A stretch of 64,000 nucleotides of DNA from Nemertoderma westbladi (Eukaryota; Animalia; Xenacoelomorpha), in contig JAUCBJ010000816.1 in assembly GCA_032718475.1 (NCBI GenBank), positions 36,476-100,475 of the forward strand, written 5' to 3'. Positions 11,908 through 64,000 of this stretch are shown here, one piece after another. A program made the translations under genes and the position numbers. How positions within the stretch are numbered: position 1 is the stretch's first letter; every line of letters begins with the position of its first letter. The notes under the pieces are model-generated. The model did no database searches and was not told the origin of the DNA. It worked only from the letters and a program-made list of their open reading frames with translations.

Positions 11908-11985
11908 CCGCTCCCAGAAAATGGGATTTAAGTCTATAAAATATAACAAATCACAGTTTCTAAAATATAAAAATACTCTAAACAG

Positions 11986-28178: not shown

Positions 28179-28189
28179 ATATCTGTTAT
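28179..28189 (-). other. Non-tRNA primer-binding-site candidate (ATAACAGATAT)
   Basis: Abuts the CA end of the 5' LTR, has no TGG, and is the exact reverse complement of minus-strand LTR nt 28926-28916. Confidence 0.65.
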
Positions 28190-29318: not shown

Positions 29319-30375
29319 GCAGTATAGGTGCTTTAGCGGACATAACAAGCCATTTTTACCGCAATGCGCTTAATACTCTAAATAGATTGTAGTTCAGATG
29401 ACGAAATCTGTCAGCTGATTTACTGTTGATGTGGAACTTCTTTGTTCAGCTCGCTCAGCCAATCAGAGCGATTTTCATTTTATCTTGCACAGAGGCCTAC
29501 GGAAAACCGGGCAATGCATTACGGTCTTTGTTTACCTTTCTGAGCGAGAACAACTGCTTGGAAATTCTTCTGTACTTCTGTGTTGGAAGTTTCAGACTTT
29601 GACCTAAACATCAGAAACATCAGATGGCTTTGATTACAAGAACGTAAAACTATTAACGCGGCACTACGCAACGCGATTCAACTACCGCATCACACCGCAA
29701 TTCATGCATTGCTGCACATGGAACACTGCATAAGTAACACATACTGACTGTTCACTGCATTATATTACTTCTGTTATTAATTATTATGTTGGTGTATATT
29801 GCTGATATATTTGGAGAATACCGATGAATAATCATAAAACCCCCAATCTTCTTGATTACTAAAGGTTAGAGGAACAGGTTTACCGGTAGCAACTGCGACT
29901 TACATTATAGTGGTTTTTGTGTGAATTGAATGCTATTTCATAATCCCTACATGTGTCAGTTGCTATCCTCCTTATATATGATCAAATTCAGTGACGGTCG
30001 GCAGATCAGTGCGCAGTAGTGTGAAGTAGTGTGAAGGTTAATAAAGCATCTCCTAAAGAATGCGCTTTTTACGAAACTCAGTAGCCATCCAGTTGTGACT
30101 TAAAGCGCCACGTCCTAAAGGAACTGTTAATATTTCCCCGAAAGTAAATATATTGTCAGAGATTATATATCAACGATCAATCGAATAATACAGTAGGTCT
30201 ATACTGCAATCACTATCAAAGCATCCGAATCCAGTCTCCCTTAACTGTGGGTGAATGGTCTCGCACAGGCTGGCTTCGGCTGATGTAACTTCAGTACATT
30301 AAATAATTGATATACAAAAAGACAACTAAAATTGGCAGGTTAAACTGCAAAAGGTCTAAAAGCGCGAACAAATAC

Positions 30376-30621
30376 CTTGGCACCTGACAGTTGATCCTGG
30401 CAGCAATCTCCACGGTTGTAGAGTTCCACACTCTCTATAGCTGTTGTGTGAACGAGGTCCACCCACCACCAACTAGGTCCCATACTGTCGGTATGAGTGC
30501 AGGAGTTCCCATCCCAGTTACTGTCTGTGTTACCGTCGTTAGCTCGAGCAGGGGAACCTCCGTCGATTTCCGAATCAGCACCAGTGGGGAGACCAAGTGC
30601 AATGTTTCTTGAAACTTCCAC
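30376..30621 (-). CDS. Tandem F-type lectin exon (end of domain 1 + N-terminal half of domain 2)
   Basis: Acceptor TTTAG|GTG and donor AAG|GTATTT. Encodes VEVSRNIALG...ANDGN...SCTHT...WWWVDL...YNRGDCC...GAK. In-frame joins give LCE|VEV and GAK|VFV. Confidence 0.93.
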
Positions 30622-33720: not shown

Positions 33721-35849
33721 GCATAAGAGATTAGGGCCTTAGGGAGTGGTAGAGAGTATGAGAGCAGTCCTAAGAGAAGTCTAAAGAGGAGGTGTTGGCG
33801 AGAGAGAATGAGTGGAGTGCAATTCGAATGTGGGGGGGGGGGGGGGGGGGGAGCAGAGTGAAGTTAGAGAGAGTAAGATAGAGCTGAAGTGGAGCTAGTG
33901 AGAAGTCACAGTTCAGAGTGAGAGGGTTTTTAAAATTGTGTGAGGATTCCACAATTGTCTCGAACCGAGACGCCAGATGTCTTGGTGCAACATAGGTTGA
34001 GGTTGCACCAAGAGAGGGTAGTAATATCAGACCCAGAGGGAGCGGCCTGGAAAGCCGACTCCAAGAAAGAGGACTCCACCCCACACCCGATAGTAGATCG
34101 GGTTCCAGCGGAATTGAAGCGCACTCATAGGTGATGCTATCTTCTCACCAGGAAGATAGCATGGGGGGAGTGTGAGCGGATTGAATTCCGCCTCACCAAC
34201 CCCATAAAGTTGGGAAGTTGCGTTTGCAGCAATATTGGGGGATACGAGGTTAATCACAAATTAATCTCGTATCACCCCCAATAACGGGGACAACATATAG
34301 CCCCAAAGAGCCACACAAAGGAGGTTAGAGGTCAAACCGCCTCGAGAAGGGAAGTGACAGCAGCGGGGGGGGGGGGGGGGGGGGAAGCACTCCCACAGAG
34401 ATGGGAGCCGAGAATTAGGTTGTTAGCCAATGAGGGGCGAGGGAGAGCATCCGCTAGGTAGTAAGGCCACAGTAGAGTAGGGGTGAATATATATTATGTT
34501 GCATCCCATTACCGGTCAGTTTGTTTACTCAGTCATTAGTTCACTGCGGACCGGCGACATAGTTCGACCGTCATTGCGGTGCTGCTATACATATTATCCA
34601 TTTTGTTACCGTTATTGCTTCTATGCTATCATTAGTTCATTTATATTATATTATCAGTCAGTCAGTTGAACACCAAACTCAAACCTTTTTACATCCACCT
34701 ATCAGCCTGCTGTGACGCGTAAGGACTCTACCCGGTCGGGATCCCTTGATCCCGTCACACACCCTATGCTGCTCGCATTCTATATTGTGTTTAGAATAAC
34801 CGCTTTCAGTTAAAATTACATTTCCATCATAAATGGTTTAATGTACTCTACCTAACAGCGAAATACAGTACCGTATAATACTGCAGGTAACGATGCCATA
34901 CAGTATTGCTTGCTATATGAAGTACTGTATTTAGGTACTCAAATTGGGTGAGTTTTATGTTACCACTATGTGGTACAACCTGTGACGCGCTGCGCTGTCG
35001 TTCCTTGTCTATCCATGCTATGGAAAAATCTTGTCCAGCAGACCAGCCTCTTAGACCAGTCTCCTCAGCTGCAGGTGTAATCTACAGTTTATAGTGTAGG
35101 GGTCGACCTTTGGCTATGACATTGTACAAGTCGACTCGTCATAAAATATAAACAATCAGGCTACTGTGAATATTGTAAAACCAATAAATCGTGAAGTTGC
35201 CCTTCACATTGAGGTTCTTCAAATGAGATGTTGCATCTACCAACGACGAGTCGAAGACCATTCTAAAATGAGCGAACTGTATGAGAACAATGATCCAGAA
35301 CGGAACCACTGCATTTTACCCGAAATAGAAATGGCCAGCCATTTATACTGCAAAACTTTGCTTGTGGACTATCAAACTAAAGAAAAGTTGAAGAAGTTGT
35401 TCTGTATCTGCCTCGGGCCATTATACAAGAAATTTTTCATCTACAGTAAAAGACATGACCGTGGGGCCTCGCACACATTTAAGTCCAGACGCGCCTTTGG
35501 GTTGTAAAATGAGTGGATCTAGTCATTCGTCCCCTAGCGGTCGACGAATGAACTATAGATATCTGCCTGTTTGAGGAATTTCTAAACATTCCATAGACTA
35601 TGTTTACCAAGCTTGATTCCATTTCATCAAAGTTGTACCGACTTATCAGCGCTCAAACTTTTCGACAACATCGACGACAGACGGATCCACTAATTATACC
35701 CTATTCTCTAAGTCTCACCTGGATTGCACTTCAATTGCATGTCAAAAAGTAAAATCTAAACTTTATCGGCAAACGTACTGTAGAATTCGTATTGCAACCG
35801 CTTGTTACTTTTAAACTATCAAGTTCTGTAAATATAATCCTGTAATCGA

Positions 35850-43958: not shown

Positions 43959-45184
43959 CTGCAAGTAATTAATTACATTTTCATTATAATCCAGTTAATG
44001 ACAAAATTATATGTGTATTCCCTGAAACACTTACTCCCAATGGCAACATACACAACCCACGGAAGTCATTATTTATATCAGCATAGTAAGATACTACAGT
44101 ATGAATAATTAGTCTTATTTTCTCTGGGATTAACTGGCGAGCAAGCGTGCCAACAAGGTCAATGGTAAGCTTTAATACAACAAAATTGATATAAATTTAT
44201 AAGTCTGGCAGTTATATATTACTATAAAGCAGTTTACAGGAAGTACAGTACCAATTCCCATAGAAGTTAACTAACTCCAACTATATGCTCATCATTATCA
44301 GCCGTAATATTCGCTCCATGGTTCTTCTTCTTTTGCGATTAATTACTGGTTACTAGTTACTGGTTACTGGTTACTGGTTATTAATTACCTTAGATACATT
44401 AACGGTATCTTCCAAACCACTATCAACACGAATCTGGACAAGATGGGCAGATAAAATTCTATAATCTTGCATTTCACAAGTGACTGGGAATTTCCCTGTC
44501 TTACAGAAGACCCACTTACCAACCATCAATCATCAACATCAATCAGGTAAGTTTGGATTATGGTCATTTAAGCTTACTTTGATAGTAACAATGTGTTGGC
44601 AAGACCCCTGGATGGCTTCCTATAATCAGCTTACTTTGGAAATACCAGGGTTAGTTGCAAATAGTGAAAAATATCTCAAAGTTAAAAAATAATTCATGAG
44701 GTTATACACAAGTTACTGTAAAAGCTTTTGCGGACATAACAAGTCATTTTTACGCAATGCGCAGAATACTCTAAAATAGCCCTAAAATTATCCCGGACGG
44801 GAAGGAATTAGAACCCAGATGACGAAATCTGTCAGCTGATTCTCTGTGTACAGTGGAAGTTCTTTGTTCTGTCGTATTCAGCCAATCAGAGCAATTTTCA
44901 CTTTATGGCTAACAGAAACCTATGGAAACTCGCGCAATGCATTACGGTCTTTGTTTACTATTTTCTGAGAATCAGAACCAACTCAGGATTCTGTGCTTCT
45001 GTACGGAAGTTTCAGACTTTGGCCAGGCAACATCAGATGGCTTTGGTTATAAGAACGTAAATCTATTAACCCTGAAACACCACCTTGTCATCCAACCTTA
45101 TTTCATACTCAATTCATTTACATAAGTGAATATAAGTGGATATAAGTGAAATAAGTAAACCCTGTTGTAAACCCTAACCATAAA

Positions 45185-47092
45185 ATGTCACTAAATTCGT
45201 GTTATACTGATACTATTAATATTCTACATAGCTGTACATCAAAATTTATTCCTCAAAAAAGGGGTAATTCAATCTCCAATTGCATTCCTGGCTGGAATGA
45301 GTTTGTAAAAGAAAAGCGGGCTGCGGCGCAGGAGGCTTTTCATATTTGGTGCGATCAAGGGCGGCCTAGGTTTGGGCTTGTATGGGAGGTAAAGAAAAAA
45401 ACGGCCGCGCAATTTAAATTGGCTCTCCGAAATTGCAAACGGGAGGAAGGTGCTTTGCGAGCAGATCGCCTAGCGGCTTCTTTTATTAACTCCAGAAAAG
45501 ATTTTTGGAGTTCAATAAAGAAAGCAACAACTATTAAAATGGGTTTAGCAACCTCTGTCGGCTCCGCCCACACTGAGGAAGAAATAGCCGATTTATTCAA
45601 ATCTAATTATTATGATATTTTTAATTCAGTCCCTGTATCTGAAATTGACTCTACTTTTGTGCAGTGTAAGTTTTCTGAATGGGACGGCTCCAATAATGTC
45701 CATATTTCTGCTGATAAGGTGAAAGATGCCATCAACGGTCTGCAGTGTGGAAAGGCTGCCGGGCCTGATGGCATCTTCCCTGAAAGTTATATTTTTGGCG
45801 GTAACCTTTTGCCAGTAATTTTGTGTTTATTGTTCAATTCATTTATAACTCATGGGTTTTTGCCTCAATCGTTAATTAATTCTAGTTTGTTGCCTATTAT
45901 CAAAGATAAAAACGCTAGTATGAGTGAACGTTTGAATTACCGACCCATAGCCAAAGCTACAGCTGGCTCTAAGGTTTTGGAAACGTGTTTGCTTCGGCTC
46001 GTTGCCATGCATTCCAATATATCTGACAACCAGTTTGGTTTTGCAGAGGGCCTAGGTACAGAAATGTGTATTTTTGCCTTAAAACAAACAATTCACTTAT
46101 ATATTAGTAAAGACTCACCTGTGTATACTGCCTTCTTAGACGCCTCGAAAGCGTTTGACCGCGTCAATCATAGTAAACTTTTTCGAAAGCTAATTGAACT
46201 TGGTGTATCTATTGGTATTGTAAGACTCTTGGCCTTTTGGTATTCCCATCAACTAATTTATATTAGCTGGGGTTCTGCTTCTTCCGGTGCATTTTTGGTT
46301 TCAAATGGTGTCCGTCAAGGAAGTTTGCTCAGCCCCCTCTTATTTAACATTTATATGAATGACTTAAGTGTAGAACTCAACAAATCTAATGTTGGTTGTA
46401 AAGTTGGAAAGAGTCTTTTAAATCACTTATTCTACGCAGATGACCTGTGTTTACTGTCGCCGAGTATTTTTGGGTTACGTGCACTAGTCAAGATATGTGA
46501 GCGTTACGGCGCTAAATTTGATATTTTGTTCAATCCACTCAAATCACACTGTTTGTATTTTATGCCCTATCGTTTTCACCGTGCAGGCGACATCTATCTC
46601 AATGGAAAACCGTTAGACTGTGTTAAGCAGGTTTCTTACTTGGGACACATTATAAGCTGTGACCTTTCTGATGAAGCAGACATAAATAAAATTAAATCTT
46701 CTTTATTTTGTCGAGGTAATTTGTTAGTTAGAAATTTCTCTCGGTGTTCTCTTGGTGTTAAACTATGTTTGTTCAAAACTTATTGCTACAGTTTATATTG
46801 CAGCTCTTTGTGGTCTATTTTCCGTGTTCAAACTTTGCGACAAGTGAAAGTAGCCTATAACATGTGTTTTCGTCTGTTGTTTAAATACTCCCGCAGTGAC
46901 GATGCAGACACAATTTTTGTTAATAATAGAGTAAATACCTTTAAGGCCATTATGCGCAAATCTATATTTTCCTTGTTAAATAGAGTAAATAACTCAGGTA
47001 ATACGCTAATTGGTGCTATTATAACTAATTTTTCAGTGAACTCTGTTCTGAAGGATCGGTGGCACAAGGTGCTTGATCCAAGTTTAACGTAA
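45185..47092 (+). CDS. LINE ORF2 reverse transcriptase, 5'-truncated (no endonuclease)
   Basis: IPGWN, KAAGPDGI, NYRPI, NQFGF, FLDASKAFDRV, GVRQGSLLSPLLF, FYADD, YLG. Confidence 0.9.
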   Translation: MSLNSCYTDTINILHSCTSKFIPQKRGNSISNCIPGWNEFVKEKRAAAQEAFHIWCDQGRPRFGLVWEVKKKTAAQFKLALRNCKREEGALRADRLAASFINSRKDFWSSIKKATTIKMGLATSVGSAHTEEEIADLFKSNYYDIFNSVPVSEIDSTFVQCKFSEWDGSNNVHISADKVKDAINGLQCGKAAGPDGIFPESYIFGGNLLPVILCLLFNSFITHGFLPQSLINSSLLPIIKDKNASMSERLNYRPIAKATAGSKVLETCLLRLVAMHSNISDNQFGFAEGLGTEMCIFALKQTIHLYISKDSPVYTAFLDASKAFDRVNHSKLFRKLIELGVSIGIVRLLAFWYSHQLIYISWGSASSGAFLVSNGVRQGSLLSPLLFNIYMNDLSVELNKSNVGCKVGKSLLNHLFYADDLCLLSPSIFGLRALVKICERYGAKFDILFNPLKSHCLYFMPYRFHRAGDIYLNGKPLDCVKQVSYLGHIISCDLSDEADINKIKSSLFCRGNLLVRNFSRCSLGVKLCLFKTYCYSLYCSSLWSIFRVQTLRQVKVAYNMCFRLLFKYSRSDDADTIFVNNRVNTFKAIMRKSIFSLLNRVNNSGNTLIGAIITNFSVNSVLKDRWHKVLDPSLT

Positions 47093-47260: not shown

Positions 47261-47906
47261 TTACTATTTTCCTGATAACACATACTGACTGTTCACCGCA
47301 TTATTTTACTTCTGTTTATAGTATTAGTTGTTGTTATATTAATGGATACTGATGTTATATTTGGAGAATACCGATAAATAATCATAAACCCCTCAATCTT
47401 CTTGATTACTGAGGTAAGAGGAATAGAGTTTACCGGTAGCAACTGCGACTTAAATTATAGTGGTTTTGTGTGAATTAAATGCTATTTCATAATCCCTACG
47501 TGTGTCAGTTGCAATCCTCCTATATATGATCAAATTCAGTGGCGGTCGGCAGATTAGTGCGAACTAGTGTAAAGTAGTGTGAAGTAGTGTGAAGTCGTGT
47601 GAAGTAGTGTGAAGGTTACTAAAGCATCTCCTAAAGAATGCGCTATTTACGAAACTCTGTGGCCATCTAGTTGTGATTAGTATAAGTCATAACTCTGTTT
47701 TTATACTTAAAGCGCCACGTCCTAAAGGAACTGTTAATATCCTCCAAGAAAGTAAATATAGTTGTCAGAGATTATATAGTAGCGATCAATCGAATAATAC
47801 AGTAGGTCTACACTGCAATAACTCCCAAGGAATCCGAATCCAGTCTCCCACACCGTGGGTCATACGCCGCGCACGGACTGGCTTCGGCTGATGTAACTTC
47901 AGTACA

Positions 47907-50900
47907 CTAGGTGGGATAAATATTTCTCCATTTGACGCAACACCGCCGCGGCCGCTATGAGGGAGGTGAATACCGCGGCCGCTCCTAAAGCCGCAGGCCA
48001 TCGCTAACTATATAGGTTAACTTGGGATTCTGGGGGACTTTTCGATGAAGGAACTGACCAAATTTTTTTATTTTCTCACCAGGGGAGCGGCTCGGAATTC
48101 TAAGATATTAGCAACTCTAACATTATTAAATCTAACCCTTCGACGGACACGGCGGACAAAAAACCGTCATTTTTTCGACAATTTTAAAAATTTTTTGAAA
48201 GGCGCTCTACAGTGGCTCGAAAAAACCCTAGGTTATTGCTTAGCCGACGCCGGGATACGATAGAAGGGATTAATTAGTGAATTCGTTTTTTTTTCAAAAA
48301 AGATTACCACGCCTTTTTTCCGAAAATGTCCGTCAAAGTTGAAAAAACGGACAAAATGACTTTGCGGGATCCGCTATAACTCGGCTAATATTAATCGTAC
48401 GGGGACGAAAGTAACGCGGTTGGAAAGGGGGAGAGTGGTACTACCTTCGTATCGAATGGGGGTAAGATATTTATTAAAATTTCGGGTGGAAAAAGGGGCT
48501 GTAAATTTGTACGTTTTGTCCGTATTTTTTGGAAAACTTATTTCCGAAATGTTTAATTCGACAACGCGGGTAGGAATCCACTAATTCTTTTATGAAACTC
48601 GTAGAAGACCATTGGGGCTACGTTCCTATCGAATGGGGGTACAAAAAATATGTCGGCAATAGGGGCCAAAAAGGGCCAGAATTTGTAAAGTAGTTTTTAT
48701 CGAATAATTTTTTATTTTTAACTTTAGTTGGTTAAGGTACATTCTATACAGTCAATATCCATACGGGGAATTCAAATATGCTATCGGTTTTGCTCCAAGG
48801 ATGATATTAAAAAAATGAGGGCCACAATTATAATTTCGCGCTTCAAACTTGCTTCGCGGGAAATCGTCTAGCTCGAAAACTACTTAACTTACGGGAGATT
48901 TGTTTACACAGACTTATAGTGCGTTAAATTATCTACCTAACAGCGTTAATCACAGCGCCGGAGGTATTATAAAACTGGAGCGGCAGGCGATCGTGTGAAA
49001 TATAATATTTATAAAAAGGGACGATAATTTTTTTTTTAACAAATCGCTATTCCATTATAATTTAGCGTATTGCGCCAAAAGTACCTGTAAAAAGTATCAA
49101 ATTAACTCCGCTATCTTTTATCTTAACATATATAATTAAAATTACGAATTTTAAGGGTCGAAAAATATCGCGTTATTTTGGCCCTTTTTTTTAATTTTTT
49201 TGGGGCCAAAAATAACCCCTTCTCAAAAGATTAAGAAAAAAATTACGGCAAAGAATATACAAATTTTATTGAATTTGGACCACCAGAACCGAAGTTAGAG
49301 CGATTTTAGTGAAAAAATAAAAATAATTTTTTTTGCAAAAAAATTAAGAATGGTCAGGTCAATATTGGATTTCGAACCCGCGAACTTAGGTTTCATTAAC
49401 GTGACTGATAACCACTAGACTATGTGACCAAGAGAATTTGAAATTTTCGAGTGACTATTTTTAAACATAAATAACTTCGGTTCTACAGGGCCGTTTAATC
49501 TGAAACTTTTTTCATTAGATAGAGGATAGATTGCAGTGTGTGAAATAGGATAAAACTTGGGAAAAGACTTATGTGCACTAAGTGCAAAATGCACTTAAAT
49601 AGTGAACATTTTTCGATATTTCAAACACTATTATTTCCAGTTCTATTCATCGTAGAATGTTATTTTTTGGATTAAAATGTAGTTTGGAAAGATTTCTAAC
49701 TATAATCGTAACATTTGATTAACTTTTTATGTCTATAAAGTGACTTAAAATGCCCATGAATATGGTCCAAAATCGCAAATCCAGATTTATTAAATTGGAT
49801 TTTTGACACTTTTAGCGACTGACACTTGATCATACACCATCGTAGATCGGTAGAGGATAAACATAAGTTTGTTAAATAAGAGCCACCATTACGATCTGCT
49901 AAAGTGCATTTGTATAAATAAGTGTGCAAAAGTGCAAATTTTTTAATAAGGTCAAATTATATAGTATTGGGTTATTTTCTTTGCAGATACTTTATTTTCA
50001 TATTAATATGTTGTTTGAACCTTACTGAGCGCATTAGAGGATATGCGTACAAATAACCGGCCCTTATGAGGCTTCGATTGGGTAAATTAATAAAACATAA
50101 GGTTGTATAGTATAATATTCTAAAAACCAGTGTGATATTAAATGCACTTTAAATAATAAATAGAGATCAAATAACAATTGGACCACACAATTAAAAACTC
50201 GCACAATTTTGTACTTATTATATCGCTTCAAATTAATTCAACAGTGGATATTTGGGGGAAGGGCGAAGTTACAGTGTGCATTCGGGGGAAGTTTGGTGAA
50301 CTGCATTTATGCAGTGAATCCAAACTTCCCCCTTTGATATATCATATACTTAAGACATGCTAGGGTGACGGGGAAATATTTGTTACTGTCACACTTTGCT
50401 TCAATTTATCCTATCCTTTATTATTACCCCAGTCAGATAAGAGATAATAAATCAGTAAAAACCAAACTAAACTGTCTTTCATGCAAACAAATTTCTAACT
50501 AAAGACGGGTGAATGACCATGACCATGGAAATAATTTTAAATATAATCGTATATCAACTCTTTGGGGTGGCTTCCAAGTTAAACCCGAAAACAATTATTT
50601 TGTTACATATATAGTAAATAACGTTGTATGTTCTTCTTCCTCTCATAATAAAATATAAATGAAATATCTCAGATAGCTATGCCCTGTAACATTTCACAAC
50701 CAAAATATTTAAGTGTGAAAAGTGTAGGCCTACCACACTCCGCCCAAACAACCGCAAACGCATAGCCAACAAATTTAACAAAAGGTTATATACATGTTGG
50801 GTTCATGACGATATGAGTGAAAATTGATCGCGTAATATAAAGTAAAAAATTAAGAGACGGGGTGGCTCTCCTCCACTTTCTTACCCAATGGATATGTTGT

Positions 50901-51870: not shown

Positions 51871-54800
51871 TGTTGTGCCAATAAAATTACTAAAGTTACT
51901 GCATACCAGCCATATTGTAAAATGATCAATTGTTACAAACTGATTACAGGATTATATTAATACAAACTCAGGTCCTGACTGATAACTAAACAGCCCAAAT
52001 GTAACAGCACAAACCGTATATACCTAAAACAGTACGCACCCCTGTACACCTACAACACACCAGTAACATGAAGTACCTAGGACGTCTTAGATCCATCTAC
52101 AGTACAAACCATAACCCATCATCTCCCTTTTTTTTTAATTAAAAAAATTGTTGATATTAATAATTATTTCAAATAGAAAAACGGACGACAGGTTTTCTTG
52201 CTCTAACACTCCGCCGAAGAATTGATTTCGGAACTTTATTTTTTTGGAGTGGCCCCAAGGTTTGTGTTGCAATGTATGGAGTTATTATGTCAGAATTATC
52301 CTTCTGGGGACGCAATAATCAGCGATTACGCCGCAGGACTCGGCCAGATGGAAACTTGATATGATAATCACGTTTCTCTCCACGATCTATCACTATTCCA
52401 ACTCTCGACCATCATTTGGATCTTGGATTTTGTACCAAAACCTTTGTTCCAATATCCAACTCTGGTAGGGAACGTGCATTCGCATCATAACGTAATTTAG
52501 CTGATTTAGATGCCCGCCAAGCCCTTTCATCGGATTCTTTCGCATCAATCTGCCATTCTTTATCGAAAGCCCGATAATGTAAAAGGACACAAGAATGGAG
52601 GGGGTGACCAAAAACCATCTGACTTGGAGATCGACCATCTACACGGGGGTATTATGTAATTCTAATAATCCTTTAAGAAATGGTTCGGTATCAATCCTTC
52701 CATTGTCAGCCTTAGCTACTAATTGCTTAATATCTTTAACGGAAACTTCCGCATGTCCATTGGATTGTGGGTACTCGGGCAATGAGGGTACCCACTCAAC
52801 ACCCAAACGGTCTAGAAAATCTCTAAATAATTTTGATGCATACTGAGGACACCCATCAGTTCGAATCCACACAGGAACACCTGTTTGAACAAAATATTCC
52901 TGGATTTTTACAATAACTTGAGCTGCAGTTGTATCCTCAAGCCAACGGGTAACAAAAGGATACCCAGAAAATCTATCTACATACACCATATACATGGATC
53001 CTTCATAGTGGAATAAATCTGATGACACCGATTCAAATATTCGGGACGGAATCAGATCAGAAATTAAGGGCTCCTTTACATTACTAGGAAGCCAAAATTG
53101 GCATTTCTCACATGATTCGGTTATTCGTTTTATCTCATTATCTATCCCGGGCCTATATTACCGATTGCCTGGCCCGACGTCGTATCCGCTCAATACCCTG
53201 ATGAGCAGAATGAAGTTGTAATAAAATATGGTGACATTCAGCTTTAGGGACGATAATACGAGGACCTTTTAGTATAATACCATCTTCCACAGACAGTTCG
53301 TGCCAAACTGACTTAAGTTGCTGAACAAATGGGTTTTTAATTTTATCAGTTTTGAAATCTCCTATAAAAGCTCTGATGATCACTTGATAGTCATCATCTT
53401 TCCTTGCACTTTGTTTCAACCGTTCAATAATTGGGTCTTTATATGACGAATGAGTTCCACCTTTACACGACTTTTCAGTAAGACTTTCGGTGACCGATTG
53501 AAACGTAGCTGCAGCTAAATATTCCACAGTTTCGTCGTCATCATCCTCATCATTTTGTGGATCATCCACCGGCGCCCGAGATAATGCATCTGGTATATAA
53601 TTGGTTTCCCCTTTCTTCCATTTCAGTGTGAAATTATAACCAGATAATTCCATTTTAATGTTCTGGAGGCGTATATTGTCAACCATATTCAGTGTATAAT
53701 TATCCATGATTGACAAAAGTGGTCGGTGATCTGTTATCACCTTGAAATGTTGCAATCCGTAAAGATATATCCGGTATTTATTAACAGCCCATAATATAGC
53801 CAAATCTTCTAATTCCACAGTCGCATAACGGGTTTCACATTCCTTTAAAAACCTCGACCCGCACTGAATTAACTTCCACCCTTCTTCAATATTTCGCCTC
53901 TGCAACAACGCAAATCCCAGCCCTTTAGTTCGGGACGCATCAGTTTCCAAATTAATTTCGGAATTTTTGTCAAAATTCGTTAGAATTGGGGGGTTTGCCA
54001 ATGCTGCTTTTACATTGTTAAATGCTACCTCATGTGTTGGAGACCACATAAATTCATTTTTAACCTTCAGTATATCATGTAAAGGGTTTGCCATCTCACT
54101 AATTTGAAACGAGAATTGCGCCAGCTGTTGCACCACACCCATAAATGACCTCAGATCCTTTCTATTCGTGGAGAAGGGAACTCGGCTAATGCTTTGATCT
54201 CCTCTGGATCTGCATTTATGCCCGAACTTGAAACTATGTAACCCCCAAATTTAACCTCATCACGTGCCAACTTAAATTTCTTAAGATGTATGGTAATACT
54301 AAATTTATTGCAACATTCTAGATTATCGCAAATGCGGCTGATGTGCAATCTGAAATCCTCATCAGCTAGAACCATTCCATCCACTAATCGATGGACACGA
54401 TCCACACCCTCTAGTGCTCTGTCCAGATGAAAATTATATGAATCACCGGTGCTAATAAAGCCCATTGGTGCCCGGTTGAATACGAATCTACCCCAAGGAG
54501 TAATAAAACATGTTAGATCACGTGATTTTGGGTCTAGTAACACTTGCCAATAGGTGGTCTTGGCATCCAGGATACTAAAATATCTAGAGCCTGGTTGAAT
54601 CTCAGATACAACATCTCTAGGCGAACTGCTGGGGTGAACAGTTCGTTCGACCTGATGATTTAAATTAGATAAATCAACACATACTCTTATCCCACCATCT
54701 GGTTTCGGGGCTACTACAAGTGGGTGACACCACTCAGTGGGTCTATCACCAACAGACGCTATGATACCCTTTCAATGTAAATCATCTATTTCAGATTTAA

Positions 54801-57315
54801 CTTCATCACATTTGGCAAAAGGTATTTTCCTGGCAGCATGAATGGCAAAGGGTTTATAATTATCTTTCAAAATTATTTTCATAGACTCCCCAACAACCTC
54901 ACCAGTCATTGATTTTAACTCACTTTTACAATTAAACACTGAAGCATAAACTTCAAACAATTTGTTTTTAACTAAACTTATTTCAGTTTGTGTACGACTA
55001 ACTGGCAAAGATTCAATAAATTCTTGCCTTTCTAAAACGCCAAATATCTTTTTAGAATTAGACAATCGTTTTAGAATCAGACACACCCTGCAAATTGCAT
55101 TGCAGTTTGGTTGCACATTCTGATATTACGTCATCTACAAAGTATCTCGCTGGCAGTGGTCTAGGCCACTGATCATGTATGAGTCTAAGGGACTTACACA
55201 CATCTAATGACAGGTAAAACTCCGAAATTCCCTCACAAATCAGTATTGTTTCGAGAGTTTTTTGGCCTTCCAGTGATATGTATAAAGCAATCTCACCCAA
55301 TTGTACAATAGGTTGATTGTTTATATTAACTAAATTATCACTGGATGGAGGGAGTAAATTTGCTATATCAATGCCCATTTTGTCAATAAAATCTATACCC
55401 GCTACAGTATGATCAGAACCAGTATCAGGTATTTCTGCACAATAATCAATAAAATCTGCACATTTTAAATTAAATCCTTCATGATTCAAACCAACACTAA
55501 GTAATGAATGTTTATTAAATGCACATGAGGCAACACGTATCGATGCGCACATATTGTCATCGTCGTATGACAATGTTTTTACTGCACTAATCCGTTTTGA
55601 GCGACACACACGTGCAAAATGATTTCTTCCTTTACATTTGTTACACAACTGGCCCAACGCAGGGCATTTATCAACGGAATGATGTTTAATGTAACCACAA
55701 TGCAAACACCTTTCCATTACTTCCGGTGTTCCTTTCGATGACGACAGAGTTGGAGACCTATACCTAGAACCCCTGGATTGACTTTGCGAATGGTTCCTTC
55801 GGTACTGCAACCGTCCCCTTGACGCCGCTGCTGATAACGAACTGTCGTTGATTCCAAAACGCGATATCTTCATCCTCTTGGCATGGGCTCGTGCGGCTTC
55901 CTCACTACGACAGAAACGAACAGTTTCTTTATGATTAAGTGCCGGTAATTTTGCCAACAAATCCTGGTGGATTTCTTCATCATGAATACCCACTATTATA
56001 AGGGTTGAGAACCATTCATCTTCGCCCATATCTCTTAGACCTGCTGTCTCTGCAGCTTCGTACAACTACGTATAATAATTATCGAATGACTCCATCTCGT
56101 GTTGCTTGCATGTCATTAATTCCCATCTAACCAAAGCTATATTCTGTTTATCTTTAAGATAGAATTCAAACTTATTTAATACTTCATCCAACGATAAAGC
56201 TGTGTTCTGTGAGACTTCGACCACATAAAGTAGCTTCGACAATAATGTGGGACTGCAGTATCCAAAAAAAGCGGCCACTTGTTCCTCTCTGGGTTATAGA
56301 TGTAGTTTAATTAATTGTCTTGCCGTAATTACTCCAAGCAATACGCCACCGCCTAAACCTTTTAATATCAACGTGCTCGTCTAAAGTTGGAGGTTTGTTC
56401 ACAGAGGCACGCGGAGTGTTATCAGTTTTTGTGTTACCAGTGGAATGGAAATGTGGGCTACTGACAGTTGGCGGCTCAATATGTGGCTCTAGGCTTCTGA
56501 TACCACCGGCTTCAACACTCTCGCTTAATAATATTGTTACCTTATCTTGGATGTAGGTAACCTCGGATGTCATATCTTCATACATAATGTTCTCCACATC
56601 GCAGTCGACCTCAATTAAACTTTCCAACGATTAACCAACTCTTTCGTAGGCCATTTCCAACTTGTCCTTCAAGGCAAGCATATCATTAACCACAGATGGA
56701 GGTCTCTCATCCACTGCCAGAGAACCGATTCTAGACAGTAATGCATCCATCCCATTCCTGAATCGAGTGTAACTGGACTTAAACCCAGCATGACTCTTCT
56801 TCAAACGTGCATTTTCGTCCATTGCTGTATTTTAGTACAGTAGTAGTGTCTTCACAGTAGGCTTACTGGTGTAGGTTTCCGAAGTAGCGTACCGGTACCA
56901 GTCCCGGTCCGGTAGTTATAAAATTACTTACTTTACCCGAGGTTACTGGTACCGCCGTACTGGTACCATAAACAATACAGTAGTACAACGCAATTTCAGT
57001 TAGGTAGGCATGTTGGGCCCTACACTAGGCCTATTATTTAGATGTTCAGTTCAATATATTTCCGAATTCGCAGCGCCATGTTGTGTTGTTGCATACCAGC
57101 CATATTGTAAAATGAATTGTTACAAACTGATTACAGGATTCTATTAATACAAACTCAGGTCCTGACTGATAACTAAACAGCCCAAACATAACAGCACAAA
57201 CCGTATATACCTAAAACAGTACGCACCCCTGTAGCCTATACACCTACAACACACCAGTAACATGAAGTACCTAGGACGTCTTAGATCCCTCTACAGTACA
57301 AACCATAACCCATCA
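51871..57315 (-). mobile_element. Decayed Ty3/Gypsy LTR retrotransposon (Mag-like)
   Basis: LTRs 51871-52121 and 57079-57315, TSD GTTAC (51866-51870, 57316-57320). PBS TGGCGCTGCGAA directly after the 5' LTR; PPT AAAAAAGGGAGA before the 3' LTR. Confidence 0.93.
52200..56822 (-). pseudogene. Gypsy gag-pol with multiple stops and frameshifts
   Basis: Gag CLHCG..H....C-PA....CNKCKGRNHFARVC, protease IPDTGS, RT FITPWGRF..PMG..LVDG (degenerate YxDD), RNase H ETDAS..TDHRPL..DALSR, integrase SDLF..VDRFSG..RTDG..PQSNGHAE. Confidence 0.92.
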
Positions 57316-57740
57316 GTTACTTTATGACTTGTGAGCAAATTTCATTGGGTGGCGCGGGTTTGAAATCGTACCAACGATTCCCAAGTGTATCTCTAGTTGA
57401 ATATCGACCTCCCCTTCGATCACTACCACTCTGGGTTCGACCAGGCTGCTGTTAGAAAACCTGCCGAGGGTTTGAATGGAGCCCAGAGAAGTGACAAACA
57501 AAGAATGGTTTTGTGGTTTGCATTGTATATTGATCTCTAATAACAACTAGTCACACCAACTAAGTTGATGATAACATACCTCACCAATGCAATGATACCA
57601 ATAAAGTTATATCAACTACGTCATAATAAGTCAAATACACCGATAGGGGTTAGGTAATATTTGATATAGAAACTACACGTTTGTGCGGCACGTGAACTTG
57701 ATTAAGTTAGAAATAAGTTCGATTTGGTCTGGAGTCAAAA

Positions 57741-58150
57741 TGTGACAGGATCCCCGAGTTGGCGAGGGAATCCCGACCAGGTTTTGTTGTGGTTCTGATA
57801 CGCGTCGCCGCATGCTAATGGCTGAAGGCTTGGGGCTGAAAGGCCAAAGGCCGATATAATAAACGGAGTTACTGTAATAACTGATTGTTAATATAATGTC
57901 AGATGTATAAATAATGGTAATACAGCACAATAATAGCAGTAATGGCGATGGTTGAAAACCATTTGACTTCTACGCTCAATATAGCCAACTGAGGCACAAC
58001 TAACAGAGTAACGCTTATATATTATTACATGGGATACACATTCCTACCTAGGTGTGGCCTGCCAATGGATGTGTGATAATTGATAGTAAACTGCCCCATC
58101 ATTGGTTGATCTATTCTCTACTGTGGCCCATAACGGACATCACTACAACC
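57741..58150 (-). mobile_element. LTR-like remnant distantly related to the LTR at 34171-34759
   Basis: TGTGACAGGATC...GGGAATCCCGACCAGG...TACGCGTC resembles the reverse complement of 34707-34759. The right boundary is uncertain. Confidence 0.45.
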
Positions 58151-58177
58151 AAAGACTCTCCATAGACCACCATCAAA

Positions 58178-58546
58178 CCAATTGTTTGTGGCTGTCATGG
58201 CAGCACGGCACTACGGCAGTACGGCAACGAGGCATTTTGTTTGTTGTTGTCATAACACTACGGCAATTGTTTGTTGCTGTCACAACACTACGGCAGAACG
58301 GCACTACGGCAACATAGCAATTGTTTGTTGCTGTCACAACACTACGACAATTGTTTGTGGTTGTCACGGCAGCATAGCACTACAGCAGTACGGCAACACA
58401 GCATTTGTTTGTTGATGTCACAACACTGTGGCAATTGTTTGTTGCTGTCACAACACTACGGCAGCACGGCACTACGGCAACACAGCAATTGTTTGTTGCT
58501 GTCACAACACTACGACAATTGTTTGTGGCTGTCACGGCAGCACGGC
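58178..58546. repeat. Compound minisatellite (CAATTGTTTGTTGCTGTCACAACACTACGG plus GCAGCACGGCACTACG units)
   Basis: Alternating 30-bp and ~45-54-bp units. Confidence 0.9.
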
Positions 58547-59959
58547 TGTCGAGGCGTTTATGGGACGCTAACCCGAAGATGCCTAGTAAGCCGTTATGTA
58601 GTTCTTATGAGTGTTGTCAATGCCTTGGGATACCAGCCGCATATAGCAGGAATACTCACGAAAGTGTGGGGGTATATATATTATCTAATATATATATCTT
58701 AACGAGATCTAGAATTAGTTACTGTAAGTATAAGGCCTCAGCACTTACAAACTGCTTCAAAGGGGTACGATAGTTACGTGTAAACTGTTCCGTTATATTG
58801 TGTTGTTGGCTAGTGGATGTACGTATGACTTACATATATCACAGGTAGGACGCTACTTTGCCTAGTGCGTGGTAACCGCACGATTTCCTCGAATCACTTG
58901 CATCGCTGGTAAATAATAGCTACTAGTTGGGAATAATATAACAATATTGTGGACTCACACATTCGCATTAAATGAACCGAATCTTATTACTGACAAGGCG
59001 CACTTACGTTTATCGTGTGGAAATCGAGTTGATTTGATCTTTAGTCCAATATATTCATCAACAAGTAGTGCAAATATAATAGATTGCAAATAATTAGTTG
59101 TTAATGCAAGCAATTAGTTGATAATACAAGTGATTAGGTAAAATATCGTAGGCCACTATAACTAACATGACTTACTAGGCTACAAAATCGAGGTAAATTA
59201 CCTGAGATGTTAATCAAGGTTAAGCCCTGCCCTATAGAGGCTAACAACAGTTATATATGAATACACAATGTTCAGAACAGCCAATAAGACGCAAGAATAC
59301 TGGCTTCGGTAGTTACCAATGAGAGTCCAGTAATACCACAACCGTTGTTAGGCAACAATATAAACAACCTTATGGGCTATTCAATACGTTCGAAGTATAA
59401 ATATTATATGCACTGAAACCGAATAATAACCCAATGAAAATATAAGATTTCTGTATACAGTTAGCATTGGCAGCAAAACCGTTCCCTAAAATCACGTACA
59501 AGTTCCCAACACAATCCAACACAATATGTTAAATGACATAATATTAAGTTTTTTCTAAAATTTACACCGAAAGAGGTATATAAACTTTCAACAATTAAAT
59601 CATGTTGATATCAAAGACTCGTTACATACAATTAAATATAATGAACAATCCAGCTAAGTTAAACGGAGCTAATTATGGTAAGTCAACTTAATCATATAAA
59701 CAATAAGTCCATTAGGTCACTTCCGGTGAAACTAAGCAGGTATTAAACAACTTTCAAATAACACTAGGGTTTAACACATTTACTAATATTCTCTGGGTAC
59801 GTAAGTAAGTAATATGAGTCATATTATCTCTTTAGATACTAATATACTAAATTTCAGTCTTACTATAAGAAATACATATTGTTCATTATTTACAAATATG
59901 ATAGTTTGCAAACAGGTACGGGGATTTTATAAAGTTCGGCAGGCTAACTAATAATAATC

Positions 59960-61768
59960 TTATATTATCGCTTTCGTTTGGGGTGGCATAAAGAGTCGTT
60001 TCCTCCTTTTCGCGGGTGTCGGGGGCGCAGGTAGCGCGAGGTCGTCGCTCGAAATCGTCTCGTCGAGACCCGGGTGCATATCCACTGCATCAGGCGTCGG
60101 AGAACTCGGACAATCAGTATATGTTCCGGTGGAGGTGCCGGGTAAGGACGGGAACTCAGCCAGTCTCGTGGCGCGTGAGTTGGCAGCCGGTCGACGGAAT
60201 CCCGGTTCCAGGGGAGCGGCTAAGCGCTTCCGCATGGCGGTTTGCACTGGTCCGGAGGGGACAGTTTGGGTAGCGGTACCAAATGGAGACTGCTGGCCGA
60301 GGAAAATTCTCGGAGACACAGCGTGTGGGACCAGTCCTTCATGATAAATGTGTTCTTGGAAGGCTCGGTGCTGTGGAAGCAGCTCGGGATGTCTCTCCAG
60401 GAAGTGGGGACCATAAAAGGGGGAGTCTTTAATGAATTTTATTATGTCGTAAGACGTCACATATTTTGGGTGTGTTTCTCGAAGAAAACGTCGGACGAAA
60501 TGGGTGTTGGTGCAGGAAGCTACACGGTTGAGGAGTTCGTAGCTGAGTAGCCAAGCACATCTGACGTCAGTGGCGCAAATAAAAGGAGTCAGGGAATGAC
60601 GAAAGCATTCGAGGTTCAAAAATTTACCAAATTCATTGAGCTTGGCAAGTTGGATTCCAAATAGCAACGGGTGCGTTCTCAATGTACGGCTACATACGTC
60701 CGCAAGCCATCCAGATAACGCTTGGTTTTTGAATATGAGTTACATCGCCAATGAGGGGCGCTAGGGGACACTCATAAACTATACACGGCACCGGGAGCGG
60801 TGAGTGGTCCCTGAAAATAATAGGGTGAATATGCGTCACCATAAACTTGAGAATACGTCTCGCGATCAGTCTCCTTGAAGTTCCAATCGTACTCCTGGAA
60901 GGCGATATGGCCGGAGGAAGTACGATCAACTCAGTTATACGTATTGTTAGCGTTGCGTCAATACATAACTCCGAAGGAGCCGCGAGATTGCGCCCAAGGA
61001 AGGATAACTTAAGTGTCGACGAAGGGATATGGCATATCGTGGACAATAGGAAAATCATCCGTTAAGTCCCGATATATGGCTGAATCGAGTTTGTAGACTG
61101 ATTCATCCAACAGAATGTCTAACACCTGTTACGGTAACAAAGTAGCGTCGATTCCCATAGCCGGGTGTCAGTGTGTGTCATTGACATAAGCCTCCGTTTT
61201 AACAAATTGTTAATGTCTCGCACAGGGTTGATAAGAAGTCAAGGTGGGGAAGGCGCTATTGGTTCGGGGCGAATACCTTTGGGATAATGAGTTTGTTGAG
61301 TTTGGGCCGCCATTATATTTAAATAAGTTTCTCGAAGGAACGTAACTAAGTCCTCAAATTTGGCCGTGTTAACGCTGGTTTCTGCGTCGTCTGTCGACAT
61401 GGCGTCTCGGATGGCGTCTTCCCTGTCCATTCGCGCGGTATCCTCCCGTTGTCTCTGTACATGATAACGCCACATTTCCATGTCTTTTCGCTCATGAACA
61501 TCTTCTGAGTATATAAGATCGTTCGGGTGTCCAGATATGACAAACGGTTTATAAGATCCATCTATATTAGTATACCTGTCCATAAAGGTGTGGTAATGTA
61601 GCCGCTCGGATACCTCTACCGGGGACATTAAAGGTTCCGTATACTGTTGCGGTACTCCAGGTGTCAACAAATCCTCCATCATCTCTCGCATACCTCGACG
61701 ATATTCCTCTGAAAGTTGTTGTCGCTGTATATTGATATTATCCATTGGATCATCATTAGAAGTATCCA
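59960..61768 (-). pseudogene. Decayed, internally deleted paralog of the 1417-aa accessory ORF
   Basis: Collinear peptide blocks: YTEPLMSP/YIEPPMSP, FLRETYLNI (identical), YPKGI/YPQGI, PAMGID, PYPFVDT, RTHPLLFG..LAKL..ECFR..LTPF, SYELL..FVRRFLR..HPEL, PGTSTGTYTD/PGTSTGGYTD. The exonuclease part has several stops. Confidence 0.9.
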
Positions 61769-63216
61769 TTGTTATTATTGTAAGAAACAAATATGTTATC
61801 AATCCAACAAAGGCAAACCAAAGTTAATTATTGTTATAGTTAGTTATCAAGGTTCGCGCGGGTCGGCAATGGCAAGCCGCCCTCTTTCCCCCAGCCTGGC
61901 ACGGACCCGAGCTGCCCCTGGCCACGTTAGCGCCGCTATGCCAATTCCCTATCCAACAGGCGTGGATGAACGGGTGGATGACGCAACGGCTAACACGCAG
62001 GAAAAGCTCGAGGCCGGTCTTATCCAAGGGCTTTTCGTCGGGGTAACCATTATTGCAATGTAATTGCAGTTAGTCAGCAATAAGGCTTCGGTTCGCTACA
62101 GTAAACACACGTGGAGTAGTTGCTATTCATACTGTCATGCAAACTAATGCACACAATATCACAACATGTACCGGTCGACCGGTATGAAGTGTTTATCACA
62201 AATCTACTATTTCCCGAATGTTGATATTAGTTTCCATGGATACTCACCAAATATATTTAAAGATATTAAATTTAGCAAATACGACAAACTCTAGAACTTT
62301 AATAAAAAACAAGGGTTGCGTGAGCGACACACCAGCGTCCCAATGTTCTAAATTAATTATTAATTTATCGAAGATCAACATTCGGTAAATATAGCGGTAG
62401 GATAGGCTATTGCTCATTCATACAGATCTGGGTTTACTGTGATATTATTACGTCATTTACATCATTACGTTATTTTGTTGGTTATTATTTTATTTATTTA
62501 TTTTAATGTAGTGTTTGTCTGTATAGTATCGGTGTTTGTACTATCGGGATATTAATGTCATAATTGAGGGTTGATGATATTAAGTTATTAATAAATAACA
62601 TAATAAAGATTTACGCGATCTGGTGACTTAAACTAAGTTTACTCATCCCTTGGGAGAGAGCCACAAAATGGACCGCGACCGTTCCCATAATGCTCATTAT
62701 TACAGTGACTTGAACGGATTTATGGATGTGATATTGTATTAATCAATATCGAGCTATGTTGGTTCTTGAAGTTTCAAGCCAACTAATTGACATCTCTTAC
62801 TGTACTCTGGCAATTGACAAGAAGCGGGAGTAATAATTAAGACTGTGATTGAGCCGTCATAATACAGTAAGACCAAGGTTTGTTATTGTCATGCGCCATG
62901 TTTAATAATGACTTATCATGACTATTACAATTTATTATAATTTTATTTGTTACTCCCTTTGTACTAGGGTTATTTATACAAGAAGTGGCGGGCCATCTCC
63001 AGAATTTACCCAGAGTTTGGTTTAACCGAAATAAAGGATATGGATTCCGCATTCAATTGTATTATCACCATCATCATACAGTTAAAGGGTTTTGGTTGGC
63101 TGCGCGTCATGTTTAATAATGACTTATTGCAACATGTTATTGATGTTGGGTTCAGGTTTCATGCGTCGTGTGTATAACGGCTTATCATGAACCTCCCATT
63201 AGTATATTCTGGTATG

Positions 63217-63390
63217 TTCTAGAACTGAGATCAAATTTCATGCACTGTGTATAGAACAGTTTATCATGAAATATCTCACAGTCCTATTGTTTATATCATT
63301 TGTTTATAGTTGTTCTAGAACTAAGATCAAGTTTCATGCACCGTGTATAAAACGATTTATCATGAAACATCCCATAGTCCTATTGTTTTT
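63217..63390. repeat. ~95-bp tandem repeat x2 with upstream diverged units
   Basis: TTCTAGAACT.AGATCAA.TTTCATGCAC.GTGTATA...TTTATCATGAAA...AGTCCTATTGTTT occurs twice. Confidence 0.75.
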
Positions 63391-63790
63391 TGGGGACGAA
63401 GCGATACAGGGATAAATTTTGTTAGTGATGTTACTGAATATATGGCATATTTTTGAAAAAGGGGGACTGTGGTTAACGACACATGTCGAGGCGTTTATGG
63501 GAGGCTAACCCGAAGATGCCTAGTAAGCCGTTATGTAGTTCTTATGAGTGTTGTCAATGCCTCGGGATACCTGCCGCATATAGCAGGAACACTCACGAAA
63601 GTGTGGGGGTATATATATATTATCTAATATATAGAAACAATGTGATCCAGTCTCCTATCAAAAATGAAACCTAACTACAAATAAACACTTTAATAACTGC
63701 ACGAATAACTATCCTATATATTAGAAAATACAGGACATTTAGTCGCCGAAAGGGGTAAGTCTACATACTAAATTTGATAAAAATAAAGGG

Positions 63791-64000
63791 TTTCAGGATT
63801 TAAACACTGTACCCGGGGAAACACAGCTCCATCATCAGCAGTGTACTGTGAGTCCCTATCCTATCTAAATACAGCACAGTACCAATTGACCAATATAATA
63901 CAGGAAATGAAACCAAATACTGAAATAGAGTACAGTACAGTACAGTACACTGCTGATGATGGAGCTGTGTTTCCCCGGGTACAGTGTTTAAATCCTGAAA
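63791..64000. repeat. Perfect inverted repeat (at least 59-bp arms); probably a fold-back/MITE running off the window
   Basis: TTTCAGGATTTAAACACTGTACCCGGGGAAACACAGCTCCATCATCAGCAGTGTACTGT (63791-63849) is mirrored at 63942-64000. Confidence 0.85.

Follow-up and report, generated by a model that had tools for sequence, protein, structure and literature searches.

A minus-strand accessory-gene relic between direct repeats, probably a deletion derivative of an old BEL/Pao sister lineage

Features of the locus and of an intact BEL/Pao reference element

The locus studied (58547-63633) lies near the end of the window, i.e., the whole 64,000-nucleotide stretch of DNA analysed, and is bounded by two direct repeats of 150 nt each (58547-58696 and 63484-63633), which differ by four substitutions and one 2-nt gap in 148 aligned nucleotides. 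Between them, the minus strand carries a diverged paralog of the accessory ORF of a BEL/Pao element, reaching from an ATG at 61769 to a stop at 59960. Such a paralog flanked by direct repeats had been described in an earlier, sequence-only reading of this DNA, and its presence was borne out by tblastn and by the repeat comparison. To the left, the locus adjoins an 84-nt satellite of 4.4 units (58179-58546, no strand assigned), which is cut mid-unit exactly at the TG of the LTR and likely represents the insertion site. To the right, it is followed by an unrelated, high-depth repeat (63634-64000, no strand assigned) with a palindrome at 63791-64000, which runs past the window end and is likely a later insertion. 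Screening against Rfam returned three matches, all far below the gathering score, and no tRNA genes were found.

An intact BEL/Pao element on the minus strand of the same window (10754-29318) was used as reference. It is 18.6 kb in length, features TG..CA LTRs of about 1.15 kb (11907-10754 and 29318-28190) and a 5-nt TSD, and contains gag-pol (26006-17880, minus); the domains Peptidase_A17, DUF1759 and DUF5641 were identified in it. Its pol-to-ORF spacer (16273-17527) is followed by an open accessory ORF of 1428 codons (11986-16272, minus), which is oriented in sense to gag-pol; in its product, an exonuclease is predicted at aa ~700-990, with CCHC knuckles at aa ~1120-1190. The reference element is itself enclosed by a solo LTR belonging to the same family.

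The broken accessory ORF and its predicted function

The paralog does not represent a single ORF, being distributed over three frames with eight in-frame stops in 599 codons and two frameshifts. Blocks identified by tblastn (E 5e-26 to 2e-67) correspond to aa 52-181 (41%), ~770-991 (48-68%) and 1230-1394 (35%) of the BEL protein, and two large gaps leave aa 182-~770 and 992-1229 without counterpart. The N-terminal part (61257-61769, minus; BEL aa 52-181) is open over 171 codons and obtained neither a Pfam nor an Atlas match. Next comes what is left of the predicted 3'-5' exonuclease domain (60581-61248, minus; BEL aa ~770-991), with all eight stops and one of the frameshifts, and then the C-terminal part (59960-60598, minus; BEL aa 1230-1394), directly upstream of which the zinc-knuckle region (BEL aa 992-1229) is missing. 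Some cassette copies in public sequencing runs retain sequence missing from this locus, as exemplified by a contig from run X5 with ~620 nt extra at the 60598/60581 gap.

Comparison of the two ORFs over 423 codons yielded codon identities of 60/73/35%, a pN of 0.35 and a pS of 0.75, which upholds the earlier claim that the gene is old. Judged from these substitution patterns, the accessory ORF was under purifying selection earlier; in this copy it subsequently died, as shown by its stops, frameshifts and gaps, and is a dead passenger. Eight stops, compared with about one expected from the divergence of the repeat pair, imply that decay preceded the last copying, and the stop excess is significant even at the upper bound of this divergence (P below 0.005). 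However, the clustering of every stop in the exonuclease part suggests a mosaic and weakens this dating argument.

Regarding the function of the intact ORF, 25 of 30 matches in the ESM Atlas belonged to the PF01612 set at 0.92, with 164 shared features, whereas neither Pfam nor PDB provided a match; AlphaFold predictions were of low confidence (pLDDT about 30). The label 'exonuclease' given in the sequence-only reading is therefore moderately supported as a prediction, with the Atlas result in its favour and the missing Pfam match against it. Exonucleases of the DEDDy/RNase D-like family possess three acidic motifs, the first of which would lie at BEL aa 700-770. The paralog lacks the part matching this segment and does not present three acidic motifs in one open frame. 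Homologs of the accessory protein were found neither at E 0.001 nor among longer proteins, while a 50% protein library contained two distant relatives, P0001 (E 1.7e-6) and P0002 (E 5.7e-4), both singletons. P0001 matched PF01612 at E 0.2 and, used as query, recovered itself only. Viral contigs contained no match to the accessory ORF or to BEL pol.

A collinear spacer and the missing gag-pol region

The non-coding stretch upstream of the paralog (61770-63054, minus) is homologous to the pol-to-ORF spacer of the reference element, as detected by blastn (blocks with E 1e-6, 9e-6 and 0.18) and nhmmer (E 4.8e-8 and 5.6e-9). This homology extends over 1.3 kb on the same strand and is collinear, with offsets of 45527-45635 (within 110 nt); together, spacer and ORF form an internal sequence collinear with that of the autonomous BEL element on the same strand. 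The ORF stop is separated from the likely 3' LTR by 394 nt of non-coding sequence (59567-59959, minus), compared with 79 nt in the reference element.

The segment in which leader, gag and pol would join the spacer (63055-63483, no strand assigned) comprises a 96-nt tandem (63215-63388) and a purine run on the plus strand (63455-63467). Contig depth near 63427 was low, with values of 46, 182 and 146 in runs X1-X3. Long loose contig ends were noticed at 63331 and 63368; they may mark a gag-pol junction, but begin with the local tandem unit. Seven BEL and Gypsy gag/pol queries revealed no trace of gag or pol in 58547-64000 (best E 0.07). The earlier statement that no pol remains thus holds between the two repeats, to which the absence of gag-pol applies, while beyond them the window ends after 367 nt.

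It is conceivable, if rather improbable, that the right repeat is an LTR of the same family inserted behind pol, in which case gag-pol and the 5' LTR would be located past the window end and the element would not be pol-less. Transferred by the offset, the BEL pol stop corresponds to 63407-63515, i.e., it falls at the repeat, and the spacer homology ends about there; moreover, the reference element, too, is inserted in a family LTR present as a solo copy, the window stops shortly after the repeat, and no PBS follows the latter. On the other hand, no pol remnant occurs in 58547-64000, and the divergence within the repeat pair (4/148) is lower than that of most family contigs: in X1, 651 of 1497 contigs reach at least 95% to the window, so that the two repeats are closer than most, which fits a co-inserted pair. 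The cassette was found to be multicopy in the public runs and is repeated in the organism. A metagenome scan with the 19-nt LTR end was discarded, since all four loci (4/4) had 63% GC and only 19-21 matching nucleotides, as expected by chance.

Extent and orientation of the likely LTR

A likely 3' LTR of about 1020 nt was delimited on the minus strand (58547-59566), with TG at 59566 and CA at 58547. After ~59573, contig depth drops 5-6 fold in X1 and X2 and 4 fold in X3, and this drop coincides with a minus-strand junction at 59566, CGG/TGTAAA, which is identical to the LTR junction of the reference element. The unit is T-rich on the minus strand, as are both BEL LTRs. The second copy of its last 150 nt (63484-63633, minus) breaks off at an AT tract and likely represents the terminal part of the 5' LTR, whose far end lies beyond the window. 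Both repeat copies begin at TGTCGAGG, and the match of the X5 contig ends at 63485 without continuing into 63468-63483. A solo-LTR reading of 58547-59566 was rejected, since none of the CA dinucleotides up to 60000 is accompanied by a TSD of 4-6 nt. RNA folding of the repeat was not unusual on either strand (z -1.2 to +0.8). No TGG-type tRNA PBS follows 63484 on the minus strand, and the same applies to the 5' LTR of the intact reference element; within the locus, no self-priming match of at least 8 nt was found. Purines account for 7 of the 20 positions before 59566 on the minus strand, ending in CGG, and for 9 of 20 in the reference element, likewise ending in CGG; neither element possesses a clear PPT or the tRNA-Arg/Gly PBS of the BEL/Pao profile.

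Local alignment of the BEL LTR with 58547-59566 on the minus strand scored 62, a value reached by 1/500 and 0/500 shuffles for the two BEL LTRs, respectively, compared with 455/500 for the plus strand. The minus-strand alignment is in register, starting at 206 against 205, and three consecutive blocks lie on the diagonal (415/391, 507/490, 604/548), with none on plus. Global scores were equalled in 0/300 shuffles on minus and 182/300 on plus. For the solo family LTR (29320-30376), global values were 1/200 on minus and 115/200 on plus, while local alignment did not favour minus (36/200 on minus, 13/200 on plus); a third family LTR, available as a piece only, gave nothing (176/200). When 126 window-strand pairs were ranked by local z, 58547-59566 came out ahead of all other stretches from outside the family; by global z, an AT-rich control window (1021, plus) reached 5.8 and was above the 4.8 of this unit. 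Searching the BEL LTR against 58547-59566 with nhmmer gave no match at E 1. Since a pS of 0.75 indicates saturated synonymous sites, barely alignable LTRs are to be expected even within one lineage. Homology to the reference LTR is weak, and on sequence grounds the LTR likely lies on the minus strand. Plus-strand alignments of the upstream region with BEL leader (z 3.1) and spacer (z 3.9) were rejected as AT-rich low-complexity sequence upon inspection.

According to the sequence-only reading, the LTRs would face the plus strand and belong to an unrelated lineage, the cassette being antisense cargo moved between lineages. This interpretation is considered unlikely. It was founded on a purine run plus TG (63455-63469) regarded as PPT and on a TATA-like motif, and it would agree with the failure of blastn and nhmmer to see LTR similarity to BEL as well as with antisense extra ORFs described for plant LTR elements in the available part of one report (PMC7264820). 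The purine run is real, but lies 16 nt from the TGTCGAGG terminus common to both copies, is one of 10 such runs in the window and is not reached by the X5 contig match. The TATA-like AT tract is near-palindromic and aligns with that of the BEL LTR on minus. Furthermore, the sequence following 59566 on plus is not tRNA-like and offers no TGG-type PBS, and the BEL LTR aligns on minus and not on plus. The absence of similarity to the BEL LTRs stands for the 150-nt piece and for blastn and nhmmer; for the 1020-nt unit it gives way to the weak, in-register minus alignment. Spacer, ORF and LTR alignment all point to minus, i.e., to a cassette in sense, and collinear non-coding homology argues for a common lineage instead of a module exchanged between lineages. 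Taken together, the collinear spacer, the LTR alignment and the CGG/TGTAAA junction favour minus-oriented BEL-type LTRs with pol deleted, the very case that the earlier reading had named as its refutation. Equally improbable is a sense cassette whose LTRs were acquired from another lineage by a template switch of spacer and ORF, with the LTR alignment reflecting chance and AT-rich composition: the negative nhmmer search, the control window exceeding the global z and the finding, reported for rotifers in the accessible part of PMC5408684, that different types of retroelement have exchanged DEDDy ORFs speak for it, whereas the three diagonal blocks confined to minus, the LTR end set independently by depth, the alignment in register and the shared junction motif speak against it.

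Proposed origin of the element

With moderate confidence, we propose that 58547-63633 is a non-autonomous element on the minus strand that arose by deletion in an old BEL/Pao sister lineage, carries its gene in sense and was likely copied in trans. The ancestor would have possessed the order LTR-gag-pol-spacer-accessory ORF-LTR, a layout still present in the element at 10754-29318. The two lineages would have parted long ago, with the ORF kept under purifying selection and the LTRs drifting to the edge of detection. In a copy of the sister lineage, leader, gag and pol may have been removed by deletion or template switch, while the spacer was kept; the ORF is probably expressed from the conserved blocks of the latter. 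Subsequently, the ORF would have lost the first exonuclease motif and the zinc knuckles and accumulated stops. An autonomous relative may then have supplied the Gag and Pol with which the LTR-bounded RNA was packaged, reverse-transcribed and inserted into the 84-nt satellite, and another repeat would later have cut the 5' LTR at the AT tract. Movement of a pol-less element in trans fits the data and is an inference from them. Intact copies are predicted to encode an RNase D-like 3'-5' exonuclease, which would be held on RNA by its CCHC knuckles and would most likely trim the ends of element RNA.

A decayed and deleted retrotransposon copy is common; the value of this one lies in providing a second witness for the accessory ORF. 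Since purifying selection retained it in two lineages that parted long ago, the predicted exonuclease-zinc-knuckle protein probably has some function for BEL/Pao elements. Should there be pol-less copies in which the gene is intact, the family would allow testing whether an accessory gene can travel on a satellite element. More doubtful is a helper-dependent family whose sole cargo is the exonuclease-zinc-knuckle gene, intact elsewhere, with the protein supplied in trans to BEL elements; if true, a retrotransposon genome would be divided in two, with gag-pol on one part and the accessory gene on a satellite.

Comparison with known systems

In a literature search, no exonuclease ORF3 was found reported for BEL/Pao. 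An exonuclease domain is reportedly present in nematode Cer elements.

The profile of BEL/Pao (Belpaoviridae) names env as the only third gene and a length of 4-10 kb (PMC8742986), from which the reference element deviates with its 18.6 kb and a non-env third ORF. The locus at 58547-63633 shares spacer, ORF and, weakly, LTR with this element, but lacks gag-pol between its repeats and is thus not autonomous as present in the window. Of the two LTRs expected in BEL/Pao elements (0.2-1.2 kb, bounded by TG..CA), one is likely present in full with 1020 nt, whereas the second copy comprises 150 nt and is cut by another repeat.

Antisense extra ORFs between pol and the 3' LTR, with gag-pol kept, are described for the plant elements Grande, RIRE2 and Retand (PMC7264820, available part); this layout equals the one proposed earlier, whereas the evidence at 58547-63633 favours sense. 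In the LTR elements Juno and Vesta of bdelloid rotifers, ORF3 follows pol and encodes a predicted DEDDy RNase D-like 3'-5' exonuclease whose activity was not demonstrated (PMC5408684). As far as the accessible part of that paper extends, no BEL/Pao carrier of a DEDDy ORF3 is named. The likeness, a separate ORF after pol with a predicted exonuclease, is one by description; the reference element differs in its BEL/Pao carrier and in a 1428-aa product with CCHC knuckles, and the locus at 58547-63633 in its broken ORF. The same portion of the paper describes TelKA2n, a non-autonomous rotifer LTR family in which most of gag-pol is absent and ORF3 is kept (PMC5408684), and which thus sets a precedent for the layout proposed here; its ORF3 is env-like, whereas that at 58547-63633 is a predicted exonuclease and dead.

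The BEL element and a probable decayed relative

The segment 58547-63633, in which a broken minus-strand paralog of the BEL accessory ORF lies between two 150-nt repeats, is likely a decayed, non-autonomous BEL relative carrying its cassette (paralog plus spacer) in sense; its parts are real and their arrangement is ordinary. The surrounding window is repeat-rich eukaryotic DNA and harbors an intact BEL/Pao element (10754-29318, minus) of 18.6 kb with LTRs of ~1.15 kb (5 differences in 1099 aligned nt, 99.5% identical), a 5-nt TSD and Peptidase_A17 (E 3e-33), DUF1759 and DUF5641 in gag-pol. Downstream of pol, a 1.6-kb spacer is followed by an open 1428-codon accessory ORF in sense (11986-16272, minus). 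In this young element (28150-28190 and 11908-11927, minus), a tRNA-type PBS is lacking, the PPT is weak, and strong folding was predicted for LTR end and leader (z -4.1). Immediately behind the pol stop, where the 3' LTR of a cassette-less BEL would begin, a run rich in purines is followed by TG (17860-17880, minus); it may be left over from the element's end before cassette capture. Moreover, a 14-nt perfect palindrome common to the BEL leader (28127) and the paralog's spacer (62170), and present nowhere else in the window, possibly represents an RNA dimerisation or protein-binding site. Two plus-strand solo LTRs of the family were observed: one (10655-10753 and 29320-30376) contains the BEL element in opposite orientation, and the other (44717-45078 and 47276-47909) a LINE-like RT ORF (45155-47092).

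The accessory ORF has no Pfam match and only two relatives, both distant, among 1.8 billion proteins. By language-model features, its residues 680-1000 resemble 3'-5' exonucleases: 25 of 30 hits belong to a PF01612 set (score 0.92), with 164 shared features, slightly below the tool's typical 170. The closest relative, P0001 (30% identity over 150 aa), matches PF01612 at E 0.2, and an alignment of the ORF with both relatives matches CCHC nucleocapsid-type knuckles in the PDB (E 6e-4). The label 'exonuclease' is thus a prediction.

Structure and decay of the paralog

As the sequence-only reading had claimed, the paralog is located on the minus strand (61769-59960); it matches BEL amino acids 52-181, ~770-991 and 1230-1394 and reads in three frames with eight stops in 599 codons. 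The remaining parts of the BEL ORF left no trace in 58547-64000, and the claimed lack of gag and pol was confirmed there with seven queries (best E 0.07). Over 423 ungapped codons, identity to the BEL ORF amounts to 60, 73 and 35% at codon positions 1, 2 and 3, with pN 0.35 and pS 0.75, which indicates that purifying selection acted over a long time and that silent sites are saturated. The eight stops are all confined to 61248-60740, within the exonuclease part (post hoc P about 2e-4); the first 171 codons and the last 259 contain none, and only one stop is expected from the divergence of the repeat pair (P 1e-5; <0.005 at the upper 95% bound). This excess and clustering suggest that the exonuclease part had already died by the time of the last copying event and may have been acquired from an older copy.

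Same-strand similarity to the BEL spacer continues in three non-coding blocks, at 62982-63054 (E 9e-6), 62378-62432 (E 1e-6) and 62093-62244 (E 0.18), and nhmmer joins both spacers in either direction (E 4.8e-8 and 5.6e-9), so that the cassette extends beyond the ORF. Paralog-BEL offsets are confined to 45527-45635, placing the BEL pol stop at 63407-63515, at the right repeat. Based on this position and the collinear spacer, the segment resembles a BEL element reduced to its 3' half, in which an LTR end takes the place expected for the end of pol. The right repeat could instead be a nested LTR of the same family, with pol lying beyond 64000; the BEL element in the window itself sits within a family LTR. 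This alternative, which the pol-stop position also fits, is considered unlikely.

Repeats and orientation

The direct repeats noted previously are genuine: over 148 nt, 58547-58696 and 63484-63633 are separated by 4 substitutions and a single gap. Contigs from three public DNA runs (X1 and X2 together representing two samples' worth, X3 one) cover 30 of 30 bins of 57000-64000. Summed depth in X1, which is not a copy number, reaches 3163-4304 across 58872-59573, drops to 594 in the bin that follows and amounts to 878-1942 across 59808-62615, compared with 46 for a contig identical to the unique flank. The cassette is therefore repeated, and a unit of higher depth terminates around 59573. Close by, at 59566, lies the end of a CA, where the minus-strand junction reads CGG|TGTAAATT, the BEL 3' junction being CGG|TGTAAAAG.

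The resulting 1020-nt unit aligned locally to the BEL LTR on the minus strand with score 62 (dinucleotide shuffling reached this in 1 of 500 trials, and in 0 of 500 for the other BEL LTR), beginning at 206 versus 205, whereas the plus strand scored 31 (455 of 500). Global alignment gave 0 of 300 shuffles on minus and 182 of 300 on plus, and 1 of 200 and 115 of 200 for a 70%-identical family solo LTR. By local z (6.3), the unit ranked first outside known family LTRs among 126 window-strand pairs (next unrelated, 4.3). Nhmmer found no match between unit and BEL LTR, a third family LTR piece showed no similarity, the family solo LTR gave 36 of 200 (minus) and 13 of 200 (plus) locally, and an AT-rich control window at 1021 reached global z 5.8 versus 4.8 for the unit. 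Together, moderate evidence points to BEL-LTR homology, the tests with the BEL LTR agreeing in direction; a sense cassette inside a foreign LTR is accordingly improbable.

An antisense cassette between plus-facing LTRs of an unrelated lineage, as originally proposed from a PPT-like tract and a TATA-like motif, is very doubtful given the minus-strand LTR alignment and the same-strand collinear spacer. Both repeat copies start at TGTCGAGG, the purine run stops 16 nt earlier, and those 16 nt are missing from the left copy, which is joined at TG to a satellite unit cut mid-phase; a contig match from run X5 likewise ends at 63485, leaving 44 contig letters unmatched. Runs of at least 11 purines followed by TG occur ten times in the window, one being the PPT abutting the LTR of a Gypsy-type element (51900-57315, minus; 220-nt LTRs, frameshifted gag-pol) that shows no similarity to the repeats. 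The TATA-like AT tract is near-palindromic and aligns with the BEL LTR AT tract on minus. No PBS was found in either reading, which decides neither orientation since the intact BEL also has none. A further LTR-like repeat (57741-58178, minus) starts exactly at the TG where unique contigs end and is related to 34425-34759 (plus; nhmmer E 6e-6, common terminus).

Other copies of the cassette

A 2122-nt X5 contig carries about 620 nt extra between 60614 and 60322, and an X3 contig departs from the window at 61255 with 70 loose letters, indicating that both paralog gaps are missing from some copies. Two contig forms ~9% unlike the window (X1/X2 and X3) span 61255 by 36 nt, so that this gap is common to at least one other copy. 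From the ORF start block to 61119, lengths of about 440 nt (the 2122-nt X5 contig), 581 (window) and about 2300 (BEL) mark a variable region. Within the two open segments, 12 of 13 places among the 40 of 982 rows listed fall at first or second codon positions, suggesting that the window copy drifted at sites that others keep. Furthermore, an X5 contig (depth 135) matching 63558-63808 and unlike the sequence before 63558 crosses the 63633 junction, so that the junction may also exist at other loci.

Proposed origin and known relatives

The decayed BEL relative probably arose in a sister BEL lineage, in which one copy would have lost leader, gag and pol while retaining LTRs, spacer and accessory gene, and would have been copied by Gag and Pol of an autonomous relative; the gene would then have decayed, and a palindromic repeat would later have cut the 5' LTR. 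The deletion, the trans-mobilisation and the order of events are what we infer. The intact accessory ORF, with its predicted 3'-5' exonuclease and CCHC knuckles, is the better target and more interesting than the relic. An exonuclease domain has reportedly been found in nematode Cer elements. Literature searches yielded no BEL exonuclease ORF, none is described in the available parts of PMC6431247, PMC11662393, PMC3118150, PMC6338049 and PMC9094657, and env is the sole third gene named in the ICTV profile of Belpaoviridae (PMC8742986). In bdelloid rotifers, exonuclease ORF3s are described as shared among different types of retroelement, and one family without pol retains its ORF3 (PMC5408684).
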